Shown: in pieces, positions 50,847 to 61,160 of the stretch
How the letters are laid out: every line of letters starts with the position of its first letter
Numbering within the stretch: position 1 is the first letter of the stretch
Assembly (NCBI GenBank): GCA_002347155.1
Contig: DDXO01000013.1
Location: 3,624 to 67,623 of the forward strand
Direction of reading: 5' to 3'
Length of the DNA: 64,000 nucleotides
Origin: a candidate division WOR-3 bacterium UBA2258
Lineage (GTDB): Bacteria > Hydrothermota > Tepidihabitantia > Tepidihabitantales > Tepidihabitantaceae
Translations under genes and position numbers: made by a program
The notes under the pieces: generated by a model
The model's database searches: none
Told to the model about the DNA's origin: nothing
What the model saw: only the letters and a program-made list of their open reading frames with translations

Positions 50847-51077
50847 ATGAAGTTCACACGCATCACGATTGACCCGCTCCAGATGGGCGGCGTCCCCTGC
50901 ATTCGGGGACTGAGGATTCCGGTCGCCACCATCGTGGGCATGTTCGCGGATGGCATGGCCGAGGGCGAGATACTCAAGGCCTACCCGGACCTCGAGACCG
51001 AGGACATCCGCGAGGCCATGCGCTATGCCGCAGAAGCAGTGCGCGAGCGCGAACTGCCGCTGCTGGTCGCTGATTGA
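50847..51077 (+). CDS. DUF433-family small protein (putative antitoxin)
   Basis: 76 aa, sequence …[48 protein letters not shown]17-TAGAAT promoter at 50796. Confidence 0.6.
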
Positions 51078-51463
51078 AGTTCCTCGTAGACAATGCCCTC
51101 TCGCCCGACGTGGCCGTGGCATTGTGTCGGGCCGGACACGATGCGGCGCACGTCCGGGACAAGGGAATCCGTGACGCCGACGACGAGACGGTCTTTGCCT
51201 GCGCCGCCCGCGAAGGAAGAATCCTCATTTCTGCGGACACCGACTTTGGACAGATTCTCGCGCGCCGGGCTCTCAAACAGCCGTCGGTCATCCTGTTCCG
51301 GCGTCGGACCGAACGGCGGCCCGAACGTCAGGTCGCCCTGCTGCTGAAGAACCTGCCTGGCGTCACTGAGGCGCTCGAGTCGGGCAGCGTCGTTGTCTTC
51401 GAGCAGGCCCGAGTCCGCGTCCGTGCCCTGCCCCTGGCCGGGAGCACGAACGATTCCGCCTGA
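51074..51463 (+). CDS. DUF5615 (PIN-like/Mut7-C) protein, putative toxin partner of DUF433
   Basis: [11 protein letters not shown]…[11 protein letters not shown]. 4-bp overlap with DUF433. Confidence 0.6.
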
Positions 51464-51764: not shown

Positions 51765-52067
51765 TTCTACGTTGATTAGGAATTAGGAATTGGGAATTGG
51801 CACCGCGGTATTCGGCAATGGTCGTGGCCCCGATGCAGCTCAGGTTTCCCCGAGCCAGCGCCGGCTTCATGATATGGGCCGCGTCCATGCTCCCCTCGGC
51901 CCTGCCCGCGGCGCGCGTCAGGGATCGCGTGCTGTGTCACCGGGGCTTACTGATACCGCCAACTGCAAACTGCGAACTGGTAACTCGCGCGCAGCGCGTG
52001 GGGCTTGGTGTCGTGCCCGTTTCTAGCCGAGTCACTTGACACGCTTCCGACCAGAAAAAAGGGGAAG

Positions 52068-52226
52068 TGTGGGGCTGTTGAAAAAGGGCATCTCTGCGTT
52101 CTGTCAGCGTGGCGGACAGAATGACGCCGGTGGAAGTAACGCTACTGCGGCGGTTACGGACGAGCACTTCTGCGTGAAGCCTCAGGTCGGCTGCAAGGTA
52201 GGGTTTTTCAACGGCCCCAGTGTCCC
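52068..52226. repeat. MITE-like element with terminal inverted repeats; copy B of the family at 33077-33217
   Basis: Ends TGTGGGGCTGTTGAAAAA / TTTTTCAACGGCCCCAGTGTCCC. Sits between the Clp remnant and the CBASS effector gene. Confidence 0.45.
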
Positions 52227-52298
52227 GCATTTCTTACCATGTCCCCGGAACTCAGAGTCTGCAATCGGAAGCGTGTCGCGTGCCCCGATGCCCTCGTA

Positions 52299-53519
52299 TC
52301 ATTCCAGAAGAGCGGCCTTCTCGTACCGTCCAACTAGGCCAGTCGGATGATACTCGTACGTCTGCACCGGTCCGATGGCGTTAAGCAGCTGTCCCAGCAT
52401 GAACGCCAGTCCCAGTGGTACTGACGCGAATAGGTGGACCCGCCCCGATGCCCGACACTCATCACGCGTGCGTCTAATACAGTCAACCACCTGGTGTGCC
52501 ATGTCTATCGCCTGCCCCACTGAAAGTGGAGTTGCGCCCGCGTCTGGACTAGCTACTTCGACGACGTTCCGAAAGCGAGGAAGTGCTTCCTGAGCAGCGT
52601 CGAACGCTGGCCTAGTATTGTGTGATGCGGAAATGAGCACGGCGATGTCCTCGGCAGCCACACATCCCCGCGCTGTGGTTATCCTGCAGTTCCAGGCCGT
52701 CCTGCCCAAGTGGAGACCCCACGGATTCAGGACTCCGCTCGGAGGCATGTTCTGAAGCCAGCATGCCCTCATCCCGGTTGGGAGGCAGAACGCGTGCCCC
52801 AGCGCCACTGCGGCGGGAATCGACGCCAGTCCATCGAAGGCCACCTCTCTGTCGTGCATTACCTCGTGGACTTGGCGAGCCACCTCCCGGAGTGCCGGAA
52901 GCAGCCGTGATGCCCAAGCGTCGGGGGACACGGCAATCCTGCCGTCGAAATGGCCTGACCACTCTAGGTTCAGTGCTTTGTCTGGGTCGAAGGGAGAACG
53001 TGACCGCGTATGCAGCGAGATACGTAGCGGCATGTCTGGCCGCGCTCTCAGCCGGATCCGCTTGAGTCTCTCGCGCAGGACTACCCGCACGACATCCATG
53101 GCGCCGCCGATGTCCAGAGGATCTCGGGGGACGCGCACTACGTTCCAGACGTCGAGGTCCTGATTGCCAAATCGCGGACGAAGAAGCGAATTCGCTTCGT
53201 CGTAGCTAAGTCCTCCCGCCAGTGCGAAAACGATGAAGAACCCATCGTTGCGCCCGTGTCGTTCGAACGCGAGCGGACATTCGATACGCTGGATGACAGG
53301 TGATTCCCTGACCTCTGGGGTCAACAGTACGACGGCGTTCGCAATGAACTCGTCTGCGAGCACCGTTCGTATTTCATCTTCTGTCTGCTCCGGCGCGAGG
53401 TCGCTGACGTCTTGCCAGGTCGGAATTCCCAAGAGGTGCTGAGCCTCCACCAGCAGTTGCGCCTCCTTCAGTCTGCATCTCTTGTACACAAGGTACGAGC
53501 GACCCGACGGGGCGGTCAC
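52299..53519 (-). CDS. Putative CBASS effector: an N-terminal TIR-like domain fused to a C-terminal SAVED-like sensor domain
   Basis: Last gene of a translationally coupled CD-NTase/HORMA/TRIP13 operon (4-bp overlaps). N-terminus SYLVYKRCRLKEAQLLV…AVVLLTPEVRESPVIQR fits a TIR/STIR pattern. C-terminal 270 aa includes HLFASVPLGLAFMLGQLL. Confidence 0.45.
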   Translation of the reverse strand: MTAPSGRSYLVYKRCRLKEAQLLVEAQHLLGIPTWQDVSDLAPEQTEDEIRTVLADEFIANAVVLLTPEVRESPVIQRIECPLAFERHGRNDGFFIVFALAGGLSYDEANSLLRPRFGNQDLDVWNVVRVPRDPLDIGGAMDVVRVVLRERLKRIRLRARPDMPLRISLHTRSRSPFDPDKALNLEWSGHFDGRIAVSPDAWASRLLPALREVARQVHEVMHDREVAFDGLASIPAAVALGHAFCLPTGMRACWLQNMPPSGVLNPWGLHLGRTAWNCRITTARGCVAAEDIAVLISASHNTRPAFDAAQEALPRFRNVVEVASPDAGATPLSVGQAIDMAHQVVDCIRRTRDECRASGRVHLFASVPLGLAFMLGQLLNAIGPVQTYEYHPTGLVGRYEKAALLE

Positions 53520-54451
53520 GAACCACTCCCTCTGAATGGCGGCGTAGGCTGCATCGACATAGCGAGGTCACGAGCGTTCGTGAAGGTGATGGGCACATCC
53601 GCTGAAGCGGCGCCCAACACTAGCTGGGGTACGAACCTCTGCAGAATGTCCGAGTAGGTGTACCCATAGTCACGGCCATCACGGGGTCCCATGGCCTCTG
53701 CTATATCGTGGAGTTGCGCGCCTGAGAACATCGCCCCATTCAGTGCTGTCTTGAGTACCTGTAGGCACTTCGCTAGGTCGGGCCGACGGAAGACAAACGT
53801 CTCGACCGCCCGCCTGCAGACCGCGGGGTCAATGGCCTCCGCTCGGTTGGTGCAGAGGATCACCGCGATGGGCAGTTGTCCGGTAGTGATATCGTCGATG
53901 CCTCTTATGAGGGCATTCACACCCGCGCGGTCCTCATGGTGCATGTGCAGGGCCGATCGTGACTGAGCGAGGGCATCAGCCTCGTCGACAAGAAGCAGGG
54001 CCAGTCCCGAGGCCTGCCCTCGCCCCCGCTTGCGGTCAGCGCTGAAGCCCCGGACTTCTGCAAACGCGTCACCGAGGAGCTTGGTCATCTCACCGACTAT
54101 CCCGGTACCACGGACCCTGAGGCTCAGTCGGAACAGCGTGACCGGTATCTTCTCCGTCTTGGCGACCGCTGCCCCCAGCGTCTCGCCCAGCGCCGTCTTG
54201 CCTGTGCCGACGTCTCCACCGAAGATCACAAGGCGCGGGAGCGCCGTGAGTCCGCGGGCGAAAGCGACGCCGTTGCGGTGATGCTTCTTTGCCCAATTGT
54301 CGATGCATGCCGGGTCTGCCACAAGGTGAAGGTAGTCCGTCACTCGTTTCTTCACGTCATCCAAGCCCACAAGGTCAGCATAGCGGGCGAGAGCCTCGCC
54401 GTTGGGAAACTTGACTACCTCGTCGAATAGGTCGATATTCGGAGTCGTCAT
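53516..54451 (-). CDS. TRIP13/Pch2-like AAA+ ATPase (Cap6-like)
   Basis: Walker A FGGDVGTGKTALGETL and Walker B LLLVDEADAL. Position between the HORMA-like and effector genes. Confidence 0.6.
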   Translation of the reverse strand: MTTPNIDLFDEVVKFPNGEALARYADLVGLDDVKKRVTDYLHLVADPACIDNWAKKHHRNGVAFARGLTALPRLVIFGGDVGTGKTALGETLGAAVAKTEKIPVTLFRLSLRVRGTGIVGEMTKLLGDAFAEVRGFSADRKRGRGQASGLALLLVDEADALAQSRSALHMHHEDRAGVNALIRGIDDITTGQLPIAVILCTNRAEAIDPAVCRRAVETFVFRRPDLAKCLQVLKTALNGAMFSGAQLHDIAEAMGPRDGRDYGYTYSDILQRFVPQLVLGAASADVPITFTNARDLAMSMQPTPPFRGSGS

Positions 54452-54996
54452 GGCGATGTCAGGAGGCCTCTTCGGAGACTGCCTCCGTCCTTAGTGTACG
54501 TCTTTCCGTACTGCCACCAACTACTGCCGGTGCCGGGCTCGGTTGCAGGGGTCCTTCTGAACGGTAGGCGCGCTGCCACTTCCTCCTGTTGCTCCGCAGT
54601 CAAACCGTACCACTTCGAGCTGGGCACCAGGAACGAGTACCATGTCGAGCCTTCGGTATCCTTCCCAGGCGGGATGCTACCAGGATGGTCGTCCGCGAGC
54701 GTTACGCCGTCATAGCTTGCATCGTAACTTACGGCCAAGACCCAGGCACCGTTACGGACATAGCCGTATTTGACAGACTGCACGTATCCGCCTGCGAGCA
54801 GTACGACCAGTTCCACTACGCACTTGCCGATCGTATCATCTATTGGCTCACCGGCGTACAGCAGCTGTATCTGCCGCAAGTCTGCTGCGACCTTGGCAAC
54901 CAAATAGCGTGCGCTCTGATGTGTGAAGCTGGAGGTGCGTGTGAATGTGCCGCTCACTGTGCCCTCCCGAAAGCCGCACCCATGACGCCTTGCCAC
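54448..54996 (-). CDS. HORMA-like protein (Cap7-like). The start may be internal (GTG at about 54957)
   Basis: 182 aa. Lies between the CD-NTase and the TRIP13-like ATPase, as in type III CBASS. No enzymatic motif. Confidence 0.4.
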   Translation of the reverse strand: MARRHGCGFREGTVSGTFTRTSSFTHQSARYLVAKVAADLRQIQLLYAGEPIDDTIGKCVVELVVLLAGGYVQSVKYGYVRNGAWVLAVSYDASYDGVTLADDHPGSIPPGKDTEGSTWYSFLVPSSKWYGLTAEQQEEVAARLPFRRTPATEPGTGSSWWQYGKTYTKDGGSLRRGLLTSP

Positions 54997-55952
54997 AGTT
55001 CCATGTTCTCGCCCTTGGTCGTCGCATAGCAGGCGTAGGTGACGGCATTGAAGGCAGCCTGAGCGCAGCTTACGAGCTTGGCCCGGTCGCCCTCAGTATA
55101 GCCGTCAGCCACGTTGTTCGTCGGGTTCACCGGGTCGAAGATCTCAATGGCCGCTCCGGTCGGACCGGGAAGTTCGGTTGCCTTGTAGTTGTCGGTGAAA
55201 CTGATCCGAGACCGAAGACCGGTGCGCACTATGTAACCGAAGAACTTCTCGATGGCGTTTCGATAGTCTGAGCAGTCCATGCCGTTATCCGCAAGGTGCG
55301 CACATATGAGCTCGATCATGAAGGACTTGCACCTGAAGGTGGCGTCCTCTTCTCTGCGCTCAGCGGCCCACCACTTCAGCAAGCGAATCACTTGCGCAAA
55401 GTGCCTAGGCTGCTTTTCCTTTCTGGCTCGGATGAACTGCAGGTGCAGAGGAATGCTGGTCAGTAGCCGCTTGCCCGTGTCTCTTGAGACAAGGTAGCCC
55501 CTGTCGTCAGCGCCACCCTCATATACGACAGGCGCGACCTCCACGTCAAGGTCCGACCCCTTGAATGAGATGCACACCGTATGGTCCTGTGGCTGGAACT
55601 GGTCTGGCTCCATCTTGCCTTTGTAGGCGTCGCGGAGCTTTTCCGTGAGCCAGGTCAGGATTGCAGGCTCATCACTGGGCGCACCTTCGGATGATATGTA
55701 GATGGCGACGTCCATATCATTGAGCGAACTCAGTGCCGTACCCTTCGCCACGCTACCAGACCTCAGTATCTTGACAAAACTGTAGTCCGGGTGCTCTAAG
55801 ATGAACTCGGCTACCCTATCGCAGACTCGGTCGAGCTGCTCGCGGAATCCCTTGAGTTCGTCCCGACTGATGTTGACAACGTTGCCTGCGAATGTAGCTA
55901 TCTCAGTGTGCCCAATTCTGGGCTCTTGGGACCCGTGTTCTGCATCAGGCAT
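54954..55952 (-). CDS. cGAS/DncV-like nucleotidyltransferase (CD-NTase) of a type III CBASS operon
   Basis: Pol-beta NTase signature GSVAKGTALSSLNDMDVAIYI plus a third acidic residue in SDLDVEV. Start set at the second Met (55950-52), which has a GGGGGG ribosome-binding site and lies 2 nt after the upstream gene stop. Confidence 0.65.
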   Translation of the reverse strand: MPDAEHGSQEPRIGHTEIATFAGNVVNISRDELKGFREQLDRVCDRVAEFILEHPDYSFVKILRSGSVAKGTALSSLNDMDVAIYISSEGAPSDEPAILTWLTEKLRDAYKGKMEPDQFQPQDHTVCISFKGSDLDVEVAPVVYEGGADDRGYLVSRDTGKRLLTSIPLHLQFIRARKEKQPRHFAQVIRLLKWWAAERREEDATFRCKSFMIELICAHLADNGMDCSDYRNAIEKFFGYIVRTGLRSRISFTDNYKATELPGPTGAAIEIFDPVNPTNNVADGYTEGDRAKLVSCAQAAFNAVTYACYATTKGENMELWQGVMGAAFGRAQ

Positions 55953-57240
55953 CGCGGCCCCCCTGCGTACGCATCGCCTCGGGCTGGTGGCCATTGGTGT
56001 TCACCGTTCGGTCCATGTCGACGCCAAGTAGTTCCACATAGGCCGCCTTGACCCTGTCGTGCAACTGGAGCCAGAGGTTGCCGTTCTTCCCTGCCGCGTT
56101 CGGGTTGGCCCCAAGACCGCGGCACGTATCGAAGGCGATCCTCCACAGGCTCCCTCCGAACCGAAGCCAGAACTGACGAAGGTCTGAAACCTTCCACGTC
56201 AGCCCAGAATCCGTCTTCTTCAGCAGGAATCTGAGAGACGCCAAGACTGGATACACGACGCCGTCCGGGATGTAGTAGTTGATCTTCTCGTCGCGCCCAA
56301 CAGGTCCTTTCCAGAAGTGAAGAGTAGTCTTGCGCCGCTGGTCGACGAAGCTAAGCCGGAGGAACCTGCCGCCATCCCCTTCGGAGTTGTACTGGTCACG
56401 CGCGTAGTAGCGGATGAAGTCGTACATCTGGAGAATGTCCCGCAGCACTGGCCGCAGGGCTTCGTAATCCGCTGCGTTGTCCTCGAACGTGGAAAGGACC
56501 CTGGCCTTGGAGACATACGCATCCAGCGGGTGGTTCTTCTCGTTGTACTTCTCCACGTTGAACAGCGTCATCAAGGCGATTACGTCCCTAACGCTGAAGG
56601 GCTCTGGGCCGAACATCTTGTACTGAATCACGTCGCTCCAATCGCGCAGTTCCTCTTTGAGCCAGATGAACTTGTGAGCAAGGTTGAGCAAGGAACGATC
56701 GTCCACTTGAACCGATGTATTGCGGGTTTCAGCCAGATCTATTATGAGATTGCGGTCCAGCCCCGTCAGCACTTCCAGCCGCACGAATTGCGGTTTGGTC
56801 TCGTCGGCCGAGTCAGGGCACACCGTCCACTCATCCGGAGATGAGACCACCTGCCGAATGATGCGATACGTGTGTCCACCGTCGATGATACCATGTACGT
56901 CCTCGTCGTCGAACACGAGGCGAAGAGCCTCCTTCTTGTTGTCGTAGTCCGCCTCCGCCACGGAGAGAGTTATTCCACGATTCAGCATGTGGAACTTGCC
57001 GTCGCGGCGACGTAGCGATGAGGCGATGTCCTTCGCTACTGCGGTGGTCAGCTTCTGCTCGCGGGGGTTGGTTTTCTCCAACGGCAGGTCGCGTTTGTTC
57101 GCGATTTCCTCGACGTTACACAGCGCGTAAAAGCTGTCGCCGAAGTCGTTGGGATTCTTCAGCCGGCGGACATTGTCAGGGCGGACCTGATAGGATATGA
57201 CGAACTTACTGTTGGGAGGCATTACCTCTCCTTTTGGCAT
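55945..57240 (-). CDS. AIPR/DGQHR-like (ParB-nuclease-superfamily-like) abortive-infection-type protein
   Basis: 431 aa. Motifs MLNRGITL and IIDGGHTYRII resemble the AIPR NNGIT and DndB DGQHR boxes. Sits between the R-M genes and CBASS, 2 nt from the CD-NTase start. Confidence 0.35.
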   Translation of the reverse strand: MPKGEVMPPNSKFVISYQVRPDNVRRLKNPNDFGDSFYALCNVEEIANKRDLPLEKTNPREQKLTTAVAKDIASSLRRRDGKFHMLNRGITLSVAEADYDNKKEALRLVFDDEDVHGIIDGGHTYRIIRQVVSSPDEWTVCPDSADETKPQFVRLEVLTGLDRNLIIDLAETRNTSVQVDDRSLLNLAHKFIWLKEELRDWSDVIQYKMFGPEPFSVRDVIALMTLFNVEKYNEKNHPLDAYVSKARVLSTFEDNAADYEALRPVLRDILQMYDFIRYYARDQYNSEGDGGRFLRLSFVDQRRKTTLHFWKGPVGRDEKINYYIPDGVVYPVLASLRFLLKKTDSGLTWKVSDLRQFWLRFGGSLWRIAFDTCRGLGANPNAAGKNGNLWLQLHDRVKAAYVELLGVDMDRTVNTNGHQPEAMRTQGGRDA

Positions 57241-57428
57241 TTACTCCCGTGCGTAGGATGCCATCCTGTCGCACTCGGCCTAGCTGCAATATGCAGCAGG
57301 CGTATAGATGATACCCCAAAAGGCCCTCGCGTCAAGATCAGGAGTGCCAGTTTCTATCGCGGCGATCACAGACGGCCGATTTGGAGTTGGCCTTCATCGA
57401 GGACATGCTGGACGTACGGGCCAGGAAG

Positions 57429-58049
57429 TCAAATGCGCGGGAGCGACACCGTGTTTGCTCCGCCATTCAGAACGTCCACGAGGACAAAGAATTCCTTGTC
57501 GTGGACCATAGGGTTGTAGTTCATGGGGACGGCGTCGCGGTTGACCATGATGATCCTGAAATCAGCCTCTACGGCAGGTTCCCGTAGCTTCTTGAGCGCC
57601 GCGCATTTCTTCTTCTGGAAGAACGTGTCTGCGACGTTGAATGCCTCGCCCACAAGCCTAACACCGTTTGACTCTGCCTCGATGTCGAAGCCCGTCGCTC
57701 CTTCATTGCCGTACTTCACGGTGTACGCCTTGAATGGAAACTGCCCGCTATTGCCAAAAAGGTGTCTTACCCCGTGGAGGATGACCAAGTCAGTCATAAC
57801 GCGATTGGCCCCTTCAAACCATGAGAGCGCCTTCGAATAGGGCCAATTCCTGACCTTCTCTCTCTTGAGCGCGTGCATCAGTTGCAGCCCGAACTTGGCT
57901 GCAATAGGGCCCAGGTTGAGGGTCTCTGCCCGCCTCGTGTATTCGGTGACGGATCGTCGGATGTTTGATTTGGTGAGCCTGGATGGCGGCATCGACCACT
58001 TAGGGAATGAGATTCCGCCCGGCCGGGCCTTCACCTTCATCGCCGACAT
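57429..58049 (-). CDS. Hypothetical protein in the R-M/defense module
   Basis: 207 aa from MSAMKVKARPGG…. Possible acidic motif FDIEAES…VGEAF. Co-directional with neighbours and 10 nt from the upstream gene. Confidence 0.35.
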   Translation of the reverse strand: MSAMKVKARPGGISFPKWSMPPSRLTKSNIRRSVTEYTRRAETLNLGPIAAKFGLQLMHALKREKVRNWPYSKALSWFEGANRVMTDLVILHGVRHLFGNSGQFPFKAYTVKYGNEGATGFDIEAESNGVRLVGEAFNVADTFFQKKKCAALKKLREPAVEADFRIIMVNRDAVPMNYNPMVHDKEFFVLVDVLNGGANTVSLPRI

Positions 58050-58059
58050 GCCACATCCC

Positions 58060-58920
58060 TCACTTGAGGGTGGTGGCACTGGCTTCGTCCGGCGGTTCGA
58101 TGCCAAGATACTCCCGATAGATACGCTCGCGATACTTCGGCCCTATCTCGTTTACGGCAGCGATGAAGGACTTGTACGTCCCTCTGCCGCCAATCTTGTC
58201 CCAGAACTCGTCGCCGATAAGCACCACTTCGTCTTCGCGCATGTTGAACCAGCGCGCGGGGAAACTCCATGCGTAGTCTTCTCGGCGACCGTATGGGTTG
58301 TATGGCAGCGCGTAGTACGCCGCCGTGACCTGCCGGGGTTCCATGCTGTAGAGCTTCAGCATCTTCTCTTTGCTAACCTTGGTCTGGTCGCTGTTCGGCA
58401 GCGGGGCTTTCAGCTCGAAGGCGTAGCTCTCGCCGGTCTTCTTGCTCTTTGCATACACGTCGCATATCACGGTAACGGGGACCGCGTTTCCCTTGCCGGC
58501 CAGTATGTAGGAAAGTTCCTTATTCCAGTCGGGCTTTGTGCGGGCAGTCCCTCTCGCTGTATGCTCCAAGCGATTCAGGGTTTCCATTATGCGACGAAGC
58601 CTCTCCGCGCCCACGGTTCCGGATATCTCGTACCCCACGGCCCCAAAGCCCAGGCCCTGCTCTGCTGCTGTCCGAGCAAGAACTTCCCAAGCAGTGCCGA
58701 ATGGAGTGACGAATCGTCTCTCAAAGTGCGAGCCCTTGAACACCTCATCCGGCACGAGGGCAGCGTAGAGCGGTCTCTTAGCCCGATGCTGGTCAACGAG
58801 GAAGGGGTCTTTCACGAGCACCTTCTCCATGACGCGGTCCATCATCGCGGATATGACGGCCTGAATCGCGACCTTTACGCTTGCGCGCCGGTCCGCGGCC
58901 ATTGCATCGTTGTCTTCCAT
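58060..58920 (-). CDS. Putative PD-(D/E)xK restriction endonuclease (type II R-M partner)
   Basis: Candidate catalytic core …VICDVYAKSKKTGESYAFELKAP (D…ExK). 4 nt downstream of the methyltransferase. Confidence 0.45.
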   Translation of the reverse strand: MEDNDAMAADRRASVKVAIQAVISAMMDRVMEKVLVKDPFLVDQHRAKRPLYAALVPDEVFKGSHFERRFVTPFGTAWEVLARTAAEQGLGFGAVGYEISGTVGAERLRRIMETLNRLEHTARGTARTKPDWNKELSYILAGKGNAVPVTVICDVYAKSKKTGESYAFELKAPLPNSDQTKVSKEKMLKLYSMEPRQVTAAYYALPYNPYGRREDYAWSFPARWFNMREDEVVLIGDEFWDKIGGRGTYKSFIAAVNEIGPKYRERIYREYLGIEPPDEASATTLK

Positions 58921-58924
58921 GTGG

Positions 58925-60229
58925 CTACGCCTTTCTCCAAACCAGGACGTTCTCGTAGAAGTCGCCGCTGCGTCTCCCTGTGCGGCGGTTCACGTGTCTG
59001 CGCAGAATGTGCTCGACCCGAACTCCAACACGTTTGGCTATTCCGCCATAGAGGTCGTGACGGTCGCCGACTACTACGACCATGACTCCATCTTTGGTCA
59101 AGTGCTTGAGCGTGTGGTCGAAGACGTCCGAGATGCCGTCCACATAGGCCTGTTTCGCCTTCACGGATGATCCTCGCTTGGCTGGCCCTATCTCCTGAGG
59201 TTCAGCGGACCGACTCAGCCCGAGAAGTTCATAGGCATACCTGTGTTGTTCATGGTAGTCAATAAGCCCGACGTAAGGCGGCGACGTCATGACCATCTCG
59301 ACCTTGGGAAACTTGATGAGGCGTGCGTCGCCATTGATGACGGACACGGCGGCATCCTTGCGCAGCCGGGTGTATTCACGAACGCGGGCGAGCGTGTCCC
59401 AGCAATAGCGCACGATGAACTTGTACGCACTTGTGGTCGGATGGCAGGTGCGGCTGTGCTTGTAGCAGTCGTATGGTTCGGTCTGCGGGCGCTTTGGGAA
59501 GTCGAGGTCGAAGTGAGTCGTCTGCCGCGCCGACCGGGCGGCGCGGCTCAGGATGACCTTCAAAAGATCCTGATGTTCGTGTTGCGGAATCAGGTCACGG
59601 AACGTAAGTAGCTCAGAAAGCGCCCGCGGGTGGAACCACTTGGTCAGATACTCGTTGTCGGTCGTCCTTAGTTCGTGGTCCCCGAAAAGAGATGGCTCCT
59701 GACTTGCGTGGGCCAGTTCGTTGAATTCCCGCAGGATGCCCTTGATGTCGCGGTCCACACGAACGATGTCATAGCGGGCGGTCTTCACTCCGGCGAGAAG
59801 GCAGTTGAACGGCGAGATGTCGCAGCCAATCGAGTCAATGCCGAGTACGGAAGCCTCAACCAATGTGGTTCCAGACCCGCAGAACGGGTCGTACACCCGC
59901 CGCGGCGCGTACTTGCGCAGGAAAATCTCCACCAGTTGAGGTATGTACTTGCCGAGGTAGGGATGGAGCCTGTGGACGTGCTTGGTTCTAATGCGTTCCG
60001 GCAGGTCGTGCTCGCGCCAGTTGAGGTTAAGTGTTCCAAGGAGCGTGTCGGTGGTGACGCTTGCGAAGTCGGTTAAGGGCGGAGCGTCATAGATTGGGTT
60101 GTAGCCAAGTGGCGCATCGCTGGCCAGAAGCTGGTCACCGTTAGTTTCCTCTGTGTCGTTAGCATCACGAACGACCGGCCTGCGCAGCTTGCTCTTGGAA
60201 GCCCGGCGGGTAGGGCGTTTCTTGGCCAC
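58925..60229 (-). CDS. DNA methyltransferase (N6-adenine or N4-cytosine), alpha-type motif order
   Basis: Motif I VYDPFCGSGTT and motif IV TSPPY. Basic N-terminal tail. Confidence 0.8.
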   Translation of the reverse strand: MAKKRPTRRASKSKLRRPVVRDANDTEETNGDQLLASDAPLGYNPIYDAPPLTDFASVTTDTLLGTLNLNWREHDLPERIRTKHVHRLHPYLGKYIPQLVEIFLRKYAPRRVYDPFCGSGTTLVEASVLGIDSIGCDISPFNCLLAGVKTARYDIVRVDRDIKGILREFNELAHASQEPSLFGDHELRTTDNEYLTKWFHPRALSELLTFRDLIPQHEHQDLLKVILSRAARSARQTTHFDLDFPKRPQTEPYDCYKHSRTCHPTTSAYKFIVRYCWDTLARVREYTRLRKDAAVSVINGDARLIKFPKVEMVMTSPPYVGLIDYHEQHRYAYELLGLSRSAEPQEIGPAKRGSSVKAKQAYVDGISDVFDHTLKHLTKDGVMVVVVGDRHDLYGGIAKRVGVRVEHILRRHVNRRTGRRSGDFYENVLVWRKA

Positions 60230-60338
60230 GGCCTAATCTACGCAATCGGCGTGGACAGTCAAGCGGGCGCGCGGGCAGGGTGAGGCGCGGCGGAGGCGAT
60301 GGCGACTGTAGAACGAGACTGAGGAGTGAGGTCGGAGG

Positions 60339-60371
60339 ATGGAGGATTCACGTCAGGACCTGAGGACGGAG
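60339..60371. repeat. 33-bp direct repeat ATGGAGGATTCACGTCAGGACCTGAGGACGGAG; left copy, in purine-rich low-complexity DNA
   Basis: Identical copy at 61311-61343. The two copies bracket the MazEF-like module. Confidence 0.6.
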
Positions 60372-60594
60372 CACAGCGCGCGTAGGACGCGCAAGTCAAA
60401 GTGCAAAATGCAGATATCAAAATGCAGAATGCCACGAAGTGGAATCTGCCACGAAATCAGGAGCAAGGAAGAGACCATCTTCGCGAAAACAGGGACGATG
60501 TGGCGTTGCAGTACGGAGGCGCGACGGAGACGTCGGGGGAAGGACGGAAGATGGAAGAATGAGGATGCAGGATGGAGGGCGGAGGAGCGGAATC

Positions 60595-60936
60595 TTAACT
60601 CATCAGCCAATCTGCCAATCGGCGCTTGATGCGTTGCAGTCTGTCCGGCATGACCTGGCCGATGGCCCCGAGAAACACGCGCTCTTCCGCGACCGCCAGT
60701 CGGCCAACGCGAACCAGGCTTGCAGCCTTGAGTCCGCTCGCTGAATAGTCGGCGTCGTCTTCTCGAATCACTTCATCAAACCCGGGGACTTGGAGGTGAA
60801 CCTGCGAGGACACCATGCTGATGAGCCAATCGCCGAATCTGCCCGGCAGCTTCCCGATGACCAAGGCCGGACGCAGCTTGCCTGAGTCGAGATCAGTCTG
60901 GGGAAACCGAAAGAGTACGACCTGGCCAGGCCGCAC
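60595..60936 (-). CDS. MazF/PemK-family toxin
   Basis: Sequence MRPGQVVLFRFPQTDLDSGKLRPALVIG… is the PemK fold signature. Confidence 0.7.
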   Translation of the reverse strand: MRPGQVVLFRFPQTDLDSGKLRPALVIGKLPGRFGDWLISMVSSQVHLQVPGFDEVIREDDADYSASGLKAASLVRVGRLAVAEERVFLGAIGQVMPDRLQRIKRRLADWLMS

Positions 60937-61160
60937 TACGAAAACACTTCCTTCAGGTCGGACGGTGAGTAGGTTGGACTTTCCTCGTTCTCCATCCCCC
61001 GCATGGCGCTGGACAGCGAGAAGCTCATCCAGTCTCGGTCTTGGTCAATGGCCTCGCCGTCGCCTCTGTCCCGCAGGGACTTCACGAAATCGCGCACCTC
61101 AGCCTGGAGCTTGTCCGGGAGACCTTTCATCAGTCTGATTGTCTCTTCGACTGTACTCAT
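60936..61160 (-). CDS. Small antitoxin (DUF2281-like) coupled to the MazF-like toxin
   Basis: 74 aa. ATGA overlap with the toxin. …LQAEVRDFVKSLRD… pattern. Confidence 0.5.
   Translation of the reverse strand: MSTVEETIRLMKGLPDKLQAEVRDFVKSLRDRGDGEAIDQDRDWMSFSLSSAMRGMENEESPTYSPSDLKEVFS

Follow-up and report, generated by a model that had tools for sequence, protein, structure and literature searches.

A gene of the AIPR family lies just upstream of a type III CBASS operon in the 64,000-nt stretch of DNA that we analyzed (the window), and its reading frame runs into that of the CBASS cyclase. This arrangement raises the question of whether the AIPR protein is a component or regulator of the CBASS system, belongs with the restriction-modification (R-M) genes on its other side, or is a separate defense gene that shares an island with both. 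The features of the locus are collected in Table 1.

Table 1. Genes and sequence signals at the AIPR locus, in window coordinates
Feature	Coordinates	Strand	Length	Basis or remark
TIR-SAVED effector	52299..53519	-	406 aa	PADLOC SAVED_TIR 3.7e-64; PF18145 SAVED 2.4e-24
TRIP13/Pch2-like AAA+ ATPase	53516..54451	-	311 aa	PADLOC TRIP13 2.5e-106; PF00004
Bacterial HORMA protein	54448..54957	-	169 aa	PF18138 (bacHORMA_1) 2.1e-36; PADLOC HORMA 1.3e-45
CBASS CD-NTase (oligonucleotide cyclase)	54954..55952	-	332 aa	NF041116 CBASS_cyclase_a 1.9e-107; PADLOC Cyclase 7e-112
ATGCCTGA junction	55945..55952	-	8 nt	Cyclase start overlaps AIPR end
AIPR-family gene	55945..57222	-	425 aa	PF10592, E 2.5e-20; family alignment
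Shine-Dalgarno-like AAGGAGAGG	57225..57233	-		Just 5' of ATG 57222; direct sequence reading
Sigma-70-like promoter candidate	57308..57335	-		TTGACG-16 nt-TATCAT (10 of 12); consensus scan, pattern match only
p206, unannotated gene	57429..58049	-	206 aa	Between R-M pair and AIPR
Type II restriction endonuclease, TdeIII family	58060..58920	-	286 aa	PF09520 2e-69
Type II DNA methyltransferase (MTase)	58925..60229	-	434 aa	PADLOC MTase_II 6.2e-90; PF01555

Position of the AIPR gene and its junction with the cyclase gene

The AIPR gene had been described as wedged between an R-M module and the CBASS operon. Both neighbors are present, but p206, which had not been separated out earlier, intervenes on the R-M side. 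The R-M genes and p206 are spaced by 4 to 10 nt, and a gap of 206 nt then separates them from AIPR. On the other side, the operon encodes a CD-NTase, a HORMA protein, TRIP13, and a cyclic-nucleotide-sensing effector, the combination that defines type III CBASS; the HORMA gene has a GTG start and overlaps the cyclase stop by 4 nt. Together with toxin-antitoxin genes, the R-M pair and CBASS place AIPR in a defense island beside an R-M module, as is often found for the family. The GC content of this island is 0.56 to 0.61, compared to 0.62 to 0.64 elsewhere in the window, and AIPR does not differ enough from the CBASS genes in GC or GC3 to suggest that the two were acquired separately.

The AIPR frame reaches position 57240 if an upstream ATG is used, which gives a protein of 431 aa (55945..57240, minus strand). 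The second ATG, at 57222, is the more likely start of the gene. A Shine-Dalgarno-like sequence lies just ahead of it, and the resulting length of 425 aa is that of the protein in public records and in the JGI gene call, with sequences identical from this ATG onward. The right-hand coordinate of 57428 first assigned to the gene marks where the intergenic region ends, beyond the gene itself. The open reading frame is full length, with no frameshifts and no internal stops, and we found the identical protein on five contigs, the three listed being from different samples.

At the other end of the gene, the AIPR stop codon and the cyclase start codon are spaced 2 nt apart, as originally stated, but the start is upstream of the stop, which results in an 8-nt overlap: the cyclase ATG occupies 55952 to 55950, the AIPR stop TGA occupies 55947 to 55945, and the junction reads ATGCCTGA. 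The JGI gene calls have the same overlap. We preferred the cyclase start at 55952 over an ATG at 55994 because cyclase homologues are 321 to 335 aa long. On the strand of the two genes, no terminator-like site was found between AIPR and the cyclase gene, and near the cyclase start we found no site resembling a good promoter. The promoter candidate within the gap between p206 and AIPR is the top-scoring site in the 8.8 kb from 51900 to 60700; the AIPR leader region matches no Rfam family and has no notable repeats. The gene overlap, the lack of a terminator-like site, and the promoter-like site upstream of AIPR make the cotranscription suggested in the original prediction plausible, and from the sequence we consider it likely that AIPR is transcribed with the cyclase gene on a single AIPR-CBASS transcript. 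CBASS expression at this locus would probably depend on transcription through AIPR. Such a dependence on read-through is the appearance expected of a true operon partner, and it counts against independence of the two.

Family, motifs, and predicted fold of the AIPR protein

Assignment of the protein to the AIPR family was borne out by the profile search, in which PF10592 matched with 73.8 bits (cutoff, 25) over model positions 3 to 274 of 308. All 37 aligned relatives also match AIPR only in Pfam (best E value, 5.2e-39), and homologues carry the NCBI annotation "AIPR family protein." The window protein has no second Pfam domain, its approximately 50 N-terminal residues have no Pfam match, and searches of PADLOC, NCBIfam, and PHROGs returned no match. 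Two sequence boxes had been taken as reminiscent of AIPR and DndB proteins, FHMLNRGITL and GIIDGGHTYRII; we found both, and both sit on invariant family columns. The NRGIT and DGGHT boxes are invariant across the 37-sequence alignment (N81, G83, D114, G115, G116, H117, and T118), and the window protein retains all 25 invariant family residues.

The protein consists of about 50 aa of beta-hairpins, a ParB/DUF262-like core with the motifs TNPREQ, FHxLNRGIT, DGGHTY, EVLTG, and ARNTSVQV, and a helical C-terminal domain with an NPNAxGK motif. The AF2 model has a mean pLDDT of 88.1; the C-terminal 15 residues (411 to 425), which are not conserved and are missing in most homologues, have a pLDDT of <50. 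When this model was compared to BFVD, it matched a phage AIPR protein (E value, 5.5e-8), and the top non-AIPR matches were GmrSD N-terminal domain proteins (3.3e-5 and 1.1e-4; probability, 1.00), followed by a DNA-sulfur-modification-associated protein (3.3e-3; probability, 0.99) and, at weaker levels, ParB-like entries. Foldseek comparison to the PDB gave nothing significant, with SspE, PadC, and KorB among the nonsignificant matches, and a sequence-profile search found no solved structure for the AIPR family. The modeled core thus resembles the ParB/sulfiredoxin superfamily, including DUF262, at the level of fold.

A ParB-superfamily domain has been described as shared by AbiU1/AIPR and the N terminus of DndB (PMC3632139, PMC3506569). 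By predicted fold, the window protein resembles DUF262/GmrSD N-terminal, DndB-like, and ParB-like proteins, which makes a ParB-type reading reasonable, but the DGQHR and DndB profiles did not match. No match at an E value of ≤0.1 came from NCBIfam, the collection that includes the TIGR DGQHR model (TIGR03187), and there were no DndB, DUF262, or ParBc Pfam matches at an E value of ≤10 across the 37 family members. The box DGGHTYR resembles the DGQHR motif of the DNA phosphorothioation regulator DndB (TIGR03187/PF14072) but differs from it by Q to G and R to T, and the gene tables list no dnd genes (dndCDE linkage) for the window locus or the AIPR relatives. With the ParB-like NTPase domains at the N termini of DUF262/GmrSD and SspE proteins, the window protein shares a D-G-x-H/Q-x motif at a strand-to-helix transition, here DGGHT. 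In contrast to DUF262/GmrSD proteins, it has no DUF262 profile match and no C-terminal DUF1524/HNH nuclease, and since TM-scores against DUF262/GmrSD-type folds are low (0.2 to 0.37), it is the core alone that appears to be shared with AIPR.

AIPR proteins are described in the literature as having a HEPN or another nuclease domain at the N terminus. The window protein is of a compact form, about 390 to 430 aa long, and has none; such a domain is typical of the family but is not required for membership. The lack of a recognized effector domain makes a stand-alone mechanism not obvious and counts against an independent role. The compact subfamily is a large one; 792 representatives were found at an E value of ≤1e-30 (about 800 clusters at 50% identity), and nearly all of the best 150 relatives are 380 to 430 aa long. 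We found no experimental tests of its members in the searched literature.

The missing effector domain, the altered C terminus compared to homologues, and the absence of the gene's usual helix-turn-helix (HTH) partner (see below) are what one would see if AIPR were a decaying remnant without present function, retained only as a carrier of the CBASS promoter. This is hard to reconcile with an intact reading frame, the full set of invariant residues, a confidently predicted fold, the identical protein on several contigs, and conservation of 27 of the 30 C-terminal residues in a diverged relative, and we regard it as highly improbable. In the window, a known but uncharacterized phage-defense-island family, AIPR, is represented by an intact gene.

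Gene neighborhoods of AIPR relatives and of related CBASS operons

The original prediction also proposed a functional link between AIPR and the CBASS module, with AIPR as an additional sensor, regulator, or effector. CBASS accessory and regulatory genes include Cap genes, such as those for HORMA and TRIP13, and the upstream regulators CapW and CapH/CapP. Like such genes, AIPR is on the same strand as the cyclase gene and tightly coupled to it, in an upstream position where regulators often sit. The same junction, with its 8-nt overlap, is retained at a locus whose cyclase is 89% identical (L178), and it is kept only in this near relative. Persistence of the junction at this distance counts against reading AIPR as independent. 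So does an overlap of 4 nt between the closest AIPR homologue (P0002; 50% identity) and its downstream gene, of which 22 residues are visible before the contig ends; these residues have no informative match.

In neither direction did we see AIPR and CD-NTase operons recur together in different lineages. At 80 AIPR-relative loci (1.2 Mb), searches with tblastn, phmmer, and a cyclase HMM found no cyclase, HORMA, TRIP13, or SAVED gene within 10 kb, and CBASS is likewise absent from the six nearest AIPR clusters whose context could be read. For the reverse comparison, a metagenome scan with the cyclase alone as the query found nothing, and the scan was repeated with an alignment. Among 80 related type III CBASS loci (0.64 Mb), of which 55 have at least 1,300 nt upstream of the cyclase gene, HORMA is kept in 76 and TRIP13 in 61, while tblastn and the AIPR HMM detected no AIPR gene in any. 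The slot just upstream of the cyclase gene is instead occupied by a different small conserved gene in 22 of these loci, and 18 of the 80 have an XRE-like HTH match, mostly on the opposite strand and a few hundred nucleotides upstream of the cyclase gene. The 80 homologous CBASS loci thus lack this neighbor, and the proposed functional link is unsupported.

We considered whether AIPR could nonetheless be a lineage-specific CBASS accessory, either a nucleotide-dependent regulator that binds DNA in the manner of DndB or KorB or a further sensor with input to the cyclase. ParB-fold proteins include transcriptional regulators, and DndB is described as a negative regulator; AIPR has no effector domain of its own, it overlaps the cyclase gene and apparently shares a promoter with it, the junction persists in the near relative, and XRE regulators, which are tied to the AIPR family in 41 of 76 loci, are found at some related CBASS loci but not in the window. 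An effector-less AIPR might in this way have been recruited as the first of five CBASS-operon genes, in place of the HTH-type regulators upstream of related operons. Against this stand the two sets of 80 loci without co-occurrence by sequence and profile searches, the lack of a match between the AIPR protein and any PADLOC model for CBASS or other defense systems, and the origin of the overlap in a C-terminal tail that is nonconserved and disordered, a sign that the reading frames may have fused by accident. The searched literature contains no description of AIPR as a CBASS accessory, in keeping with the original statement that the combination is undescribed, and it offers no support for such a role. 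We consider both the accessory role and the recruitment scenario improbable; the pairing looks like local packing within the island and not like a new CBASS component.

The genes on the other side of AIPR suggest a different partnership, in which AIPR would be functionally tied to the MTase, TdeIII, and p206 as an abortive-infection backup or a modulator of restriction. An association with R-M has been proposed for AbiU1/AIPR, and a position beside an R-M module is already described for the family (PMC2292703). AIPR directly follows the MTase, TdeIII, and p206 genes on the same strand, and R-M genes occur within 4 kb of some AIPR relatives (type II MTases, one type III R-M, one type IV enzyme, and one DpnI). 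However, the 206-nt gap with the best promoter-like site sets AIPR apart from these closely spaced genes. A relative of the window MTase was found at 1 of 80 AIPR loci (tblastn E value, ≤1e-3), with a second, weak phmmer match (E value, 0.0013), and TdeIII or p206 relatives were found at none of the 80; R-M is an occasional, minority neighbor among AIPR relatives. The recurrent partner is instead a small XRE-type HTH gene, adjacent to AIPR in the 41 of 76 loci noted above, and p206 homologues are found without AIPR or TdeIII. A functional tie to the R-M genes is therefore unlikely, although somewhat less so than a CBASS accessory role.

The XRE-type gene, and not R-M, is thus the usual partner of this subfamily, and none was found near the window AIPR gene. 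The nearest AIPR clusters are arranged as an HTH gene, a gene for a 152- to 156-aa protein, and AIPR, in differing chromosomal settings.

A compact AIPR gene and p206 within a defense island

The reading that we favor, with a probability of roughly 0.6, is that the gene is a compact, single-module (AbiU1-like) member of the AIPR family and an independent Abi-type defense-island gene, not a CBASS component. Its core would be a ParB/sulfiredoxin-type domain like those at the N termini of DUF262/GmrSD, SspE-like, and DndB proteins. By analogy with these, the conserved NPR-Q, N-G, DGGHT, E, and RNT residues most likely bind a nucleoside triphosphate, and the protein most likely senses DNA or acts on it during infection. 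Since the HEPN or nuclease domain of longer AIPR proteins is missing, either the ParB-like core itself would be active or a partner would act in trans.

In most relatives, AIPR and the small XRE-type repressor gene would form a cassette that is complete in itself. Here, AIPR appears to have lost its XRE partner, and it lies between type II R-M and type III CBASS in a low-GC island. The junction with CBASS would be so tight that the AIPR frame extends 15 to 16 codons beyond its usual end, across the cyclase ribosome-binding region, and ends 8 nt inside the cyclase gene. With the genes joined so tightly, the five would probably share a transcript from the promoter upstream of AIPR. The absence of the C-terminal 15 residues from most homologues and their low predicted confidence suggest that the junction is recent.

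As an independent gene with R-M on one side and CBASS on the other, AIPR exemplifies routine defense-island packing, and it cautions that a start/stop overlap alone does not establish membership in a system. If AIPR did modulate CBASS, the regulators known for CBASS would come to include a ParB-type protein, but our results argue against this. The compact subfamily, which is large, effector-less, and usually XRE paired, is a reasonable candidate for defense assays.

We also examined p206, which has no Pfam, PADLOC, NCBIfam, or PHROG match. We rejected it as a conserved partner of AIPR or TdeIII, as three homologue contexts show neither, and as a counterpart of the 152- to 156-aa gene that precedes the nearest AIPR homologues, to which it has no similarity by BLASTP or hhalign. 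Sequence-profile searches found no related solved structures for the 152-aa and 206-aa families. p206 is one of about 167 proteins that form a family of their own, and its AF2 model (pLDDT, 91.6) has mostly nuclease folds among its Foldseek matches in the PDB, all weak (best E value, 1.1e-3), which points to a probable PD-(D/E)xK-like nuclease fold.

Reading frame, family and fold of the AIPR gene

The minus-strand open reading frame directly before the CBASS operon encodes 431 aa from its first ATG. It likely starts at the second, at position 57222, which is preceded by AAGGAGAGG and gives 425 aa. The public protein entry has this length, as does the gene called by JGI. The protein contains the two boxes on which the original prediction had been based, FHMLNRGITL and GIIDGGHTYRII, and in a 37-member family alignment both fall on invariant columns (N81, G83 and D114-T118). 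The possibility that the gene is a remnant is extremely improbable, since it is intact and keeps every invariant residue of that alignment.

In Pfam, the protein matches PF10592 (AIPR; E 2.5e-20, model positions 3-274 of 308), while there were zero matches in PADLOC, NCBIfam (which includes the DGQHR model) and PHROGs, and DndB, DUF262 and ParBc gave no match at E <= 10 in 37 of 37 family members. With a limit of E <= 1e-3, an exhaustive profile search recovered 2252 cluster representatives, of which 792 reach E <= 1e-30. Among the best 150 profile matches, which align end to end, nearly all are 380-430 aa long, and the best 120 word-index matches span 346-446 aa, as in a compact subfamily. 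The window gene is a further member of a known, uncharacterised family. AIPR/AbiU1 proteins are described as an abortive-infection family common in restriction-modification (R-M) operons (PMC2292703); they are reported to have a ParB-superfamily domain in common with the DndB N-terminus, often fused to a nuclease domain, HEPN or another (PMC3506569, PMC3632139). In contrast to those proteins, the window protein is without any added HEPN or nuclease domain.

The AlphaFold2 model built from the family alignment had a mean pLDDT of 88.1, with values below 50 at residues 411-425 only. Foldseek found nothing significant among solved structures, where the ParB-like proteins SspE, PadC and KorB appeared at a non-significant E of 2-3. 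Significant fold matches came from comparison with predicted viral structures, namely, a phage AIPR protein (5.5e-8), GmrSD N-terminal (DUF262) proteins (3.3e-5 and 1.1e-4), a DNA-sulfur-modification-associated protein (3.3e-3) and, weaker still, ParB-like entries. In the model, the DGGHT box lies where strand 111-114 passes into helix 116-127, which would be the site of the DGxHR/DGQQR box in the ParB-type fold. Because of these viral-structure matches and the position of the box, the earlier description of the protein as ParB-type and AIPR/DndB-like is right at the level of the fold, as it is for the AIPR family; membership in the DGQHR family was not borne out. By likeness to DUF262/GmrSD, SspE and ParB domains, the ParB-like core may bind NTP and DNA, and it could aid phage defence alone or with a trans-acting partner.

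Junction with the CBASS operon

The operon downstream of AIPR is a complete type III CBASS, with genes for CD-NTase, HORMA, TRIP13 and TIR-SAVED in that order and successive overlaps of 4 nt each. The AIPR stop codon and the cyclase ATG together form ATGCCTGA, an 8-nt overlap of the two genes, and homologue lengths of 321-335 aa back the chosen cyclase start. At its C-terminus, the AIPR protein is 15-16 residues longer than most homologues (NGHQPEAMRTQGGRDA); this extra tail is non-conserved in the alignment, disordered in the model and coded by a G-rich stretch that doubles as the cyclase ribosome-binding region. We infer that a CBASS cassette was joined straight behind AIPR, whose frame would now run through the former leader.

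The top sigma-70-like site of positions 51900-60700 (TTGACG-16 nt-TATCAT, 10/12) lies upstream of AIPR, there is no terminator-like site on the minus strand, and the closest other promoter-like sites are inside AIPR, 800-950 nt upstream of the cyclase. Because of this combination, AIPR and CBASS are likely co-transcribed, as judged by pattern matching to a sigma-70 consensus that may not be the host's, and the co-transcription proposed earlier is plausible. From the sources of the homologues, the host is probably an acidobacterium.

Coordinates of features in the window and in fetched loci (L-numbers)
Feature	Location	Strand	Remark
AIPR open reading frame	55945..57240	-	from first ATG
AIPR stop TGA	55947-55945	-	read from sequence
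Cyclase ATG	55952-55950	-	read from sequence
Sigma-70-like site	57335-57308		
206-aa gene (p206)	57429-58049	-	unannotated
DUF433 + PIN/DUF5615 pair, toxin-antitoxin type	50847-51463	+	flanks island
PemK/MazF-like toxin + small upstream gene, toxin-antitoxin type	60595-61160	-	flanks island
XRE HTH/152-156-aa/AIPR cassette	L004:7131-9227, L007:7154-9227, L011:7140-9236, L015:257-2343		
379-aa gene	L016:6643-7782		before AIPR homologue P0010
Gene after AIPR homologue P0002	L179:1550-1615		N-terminus MMSGIHPTKAKCETDPAVLDAI; up to contig end
XRE HTH beside AIPR	among L022-L095, e.g. L062:11145-11357, L035:1352-1564		
Conserved small ORF	L105:3601-3855, L108:1647-1901, L125:6672-6959, and 19 more among L098-L177		
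XRE-like HTH near CBASS	L105, L108, L110, L113, L120, L122-L124, others among L098-L177		
DDE_Tnp_1 transposase gene	L002:10079-11125		other sample

Conservation of the AIPR-CBASS pairing

We fetched 80 genome loci with AIPR relatives, with up to 10 kb per side (1.2 Mb in total). Searches with tblastn, phmmer and an HMM of the cyclase found no cyclase, HORMA, TRIP13 or SAVED gene at any of them. We also fetched 80 metagenome CBASS loci with cyclases 46-57% identical to that of the window. HORMA is retained in 76 and TRIP13 in 61 of these; tblastn and an AIPR HMM detected AIPR in 0 of 80, and in 55 of these the DNA available ahead of the cyclase was 1300 nt or longer. The functional tie suggested by the original prediction therefore failed the conservation test from both sides. 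The exception is one contig from another sample whose cyclase shares 89% identity with that of the window. It retains the AIPR C-terminus (27/30 residues) and the identical 8-nt overlap, so the arrangement is stable in the window's lineage. We consider a real CBASS role for AIPR very unlikely and favor the reading that it is an independent gene, with a probability of about 0.6.

The slot upstream of the cyclase holds a different conserved small gene in 22 of the 80 related CBASS loci, ending ~11 nt ahead of the cyclase ATG and with a core of ~70 aa (GLDxRCRDxDGEIRxKRGDTLVxTLRKxYG..FAPGVRxDxRLDTLRER). It matches no Pfam family, is not in the window and may be an undescribed CBASS-associated gene. 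An XRE-like HTH match occurs in 18 of the 80 loci, in most of them a few hundred nt ahead of the cyclase and on the other strand. It may represent a divergent regulator and has no equivalent in the window.

Neighbors of AIPR relatives and the defence island

Examined in their contigs, the nearest homologues (44-50% identity) include four clusters in which AIPR follows an XRE HTH gene (75-78 aa) and an unannotated 152-156-aa gene, in differing chromosomal settings. The 152-156-aa protein, with neither a family nor a structure match, has a D...ELK pattern that on its motif recalls PD-(D/E)xK nucleases. In one nearest cluster, a 379-aa gene lies upstream of AIPR, with a sub-threshold nucleoside 2-deoxyribosyltransferase match (E 3.6e-5, 24.3 bits versus a cut-off of 28.8), and a homologue at 41% identity has housekeeping-gene surroundings. 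After the closest homologue (P0002, 50% identity), the next gene overlaps the AIPR stop by 4 nt; its visible N-terminus does not resemble the window cyclase. The recurrent neighbor is a small XRE HTH gene (41/76 loci), directly downstream on the same strand in 23 of 76, mostly in Firmicutes (71-89 aa, abutting or overlapping AIPR), and directly upstream and divergent in 16 of 76, 46-135 nt away. This adjoining gene probably controls AIPR expression in relatives; in the window, such control would be missing and the transcript would be common with CBASS.

PADLOC analysis of 124 neighbors in 22 loci identified scattered defence genes (R-M, PDC candidates) and no dominant partner. Upstream of the window AIPR are a type II methyltransferase, a TdeIII endonuclease and p206, spaced by 4-10 nt, with a gap of 206 nt between p206 and AIPR; a role for AIPR tied to this R-M system is unlikely. 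The p206 family comprises ~167 proteins, all unannotated, with conserved boxes FEAANRIMTDLVILHGV and GEAFNVAPSFFQxKK. Its model is confident (pLDDT 91.6), and its fold matches are weak (best E 1.1e-3) and nearly all to PD-(D/E)xK nucleases (Bax1, N.BspD6I, Can2, BamHI and Hjc). Homologues of p206 exist without AIPR or TdeIII, and we treated it as another independent island gene. As a candidate counterpart of the 152-aa gene in the nearest AIPR cassettes, p206 was rejected for lack of similarity.

From 52.3 to 61.2 kb, GC (0.56-0.61) and GC3 are both below the flanks, as expected of an acquired defence island, and PemK-type and PIN-type toxin modules are within the block. The two toxin-antitoxin-type pairs and the lower GC from ~52 to 61 kb mark the island. 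In the same island from another sample, an insertion absent from the window places a DDE_Tnp_1 transposase gene between the PIN module and an ABC-F gene.
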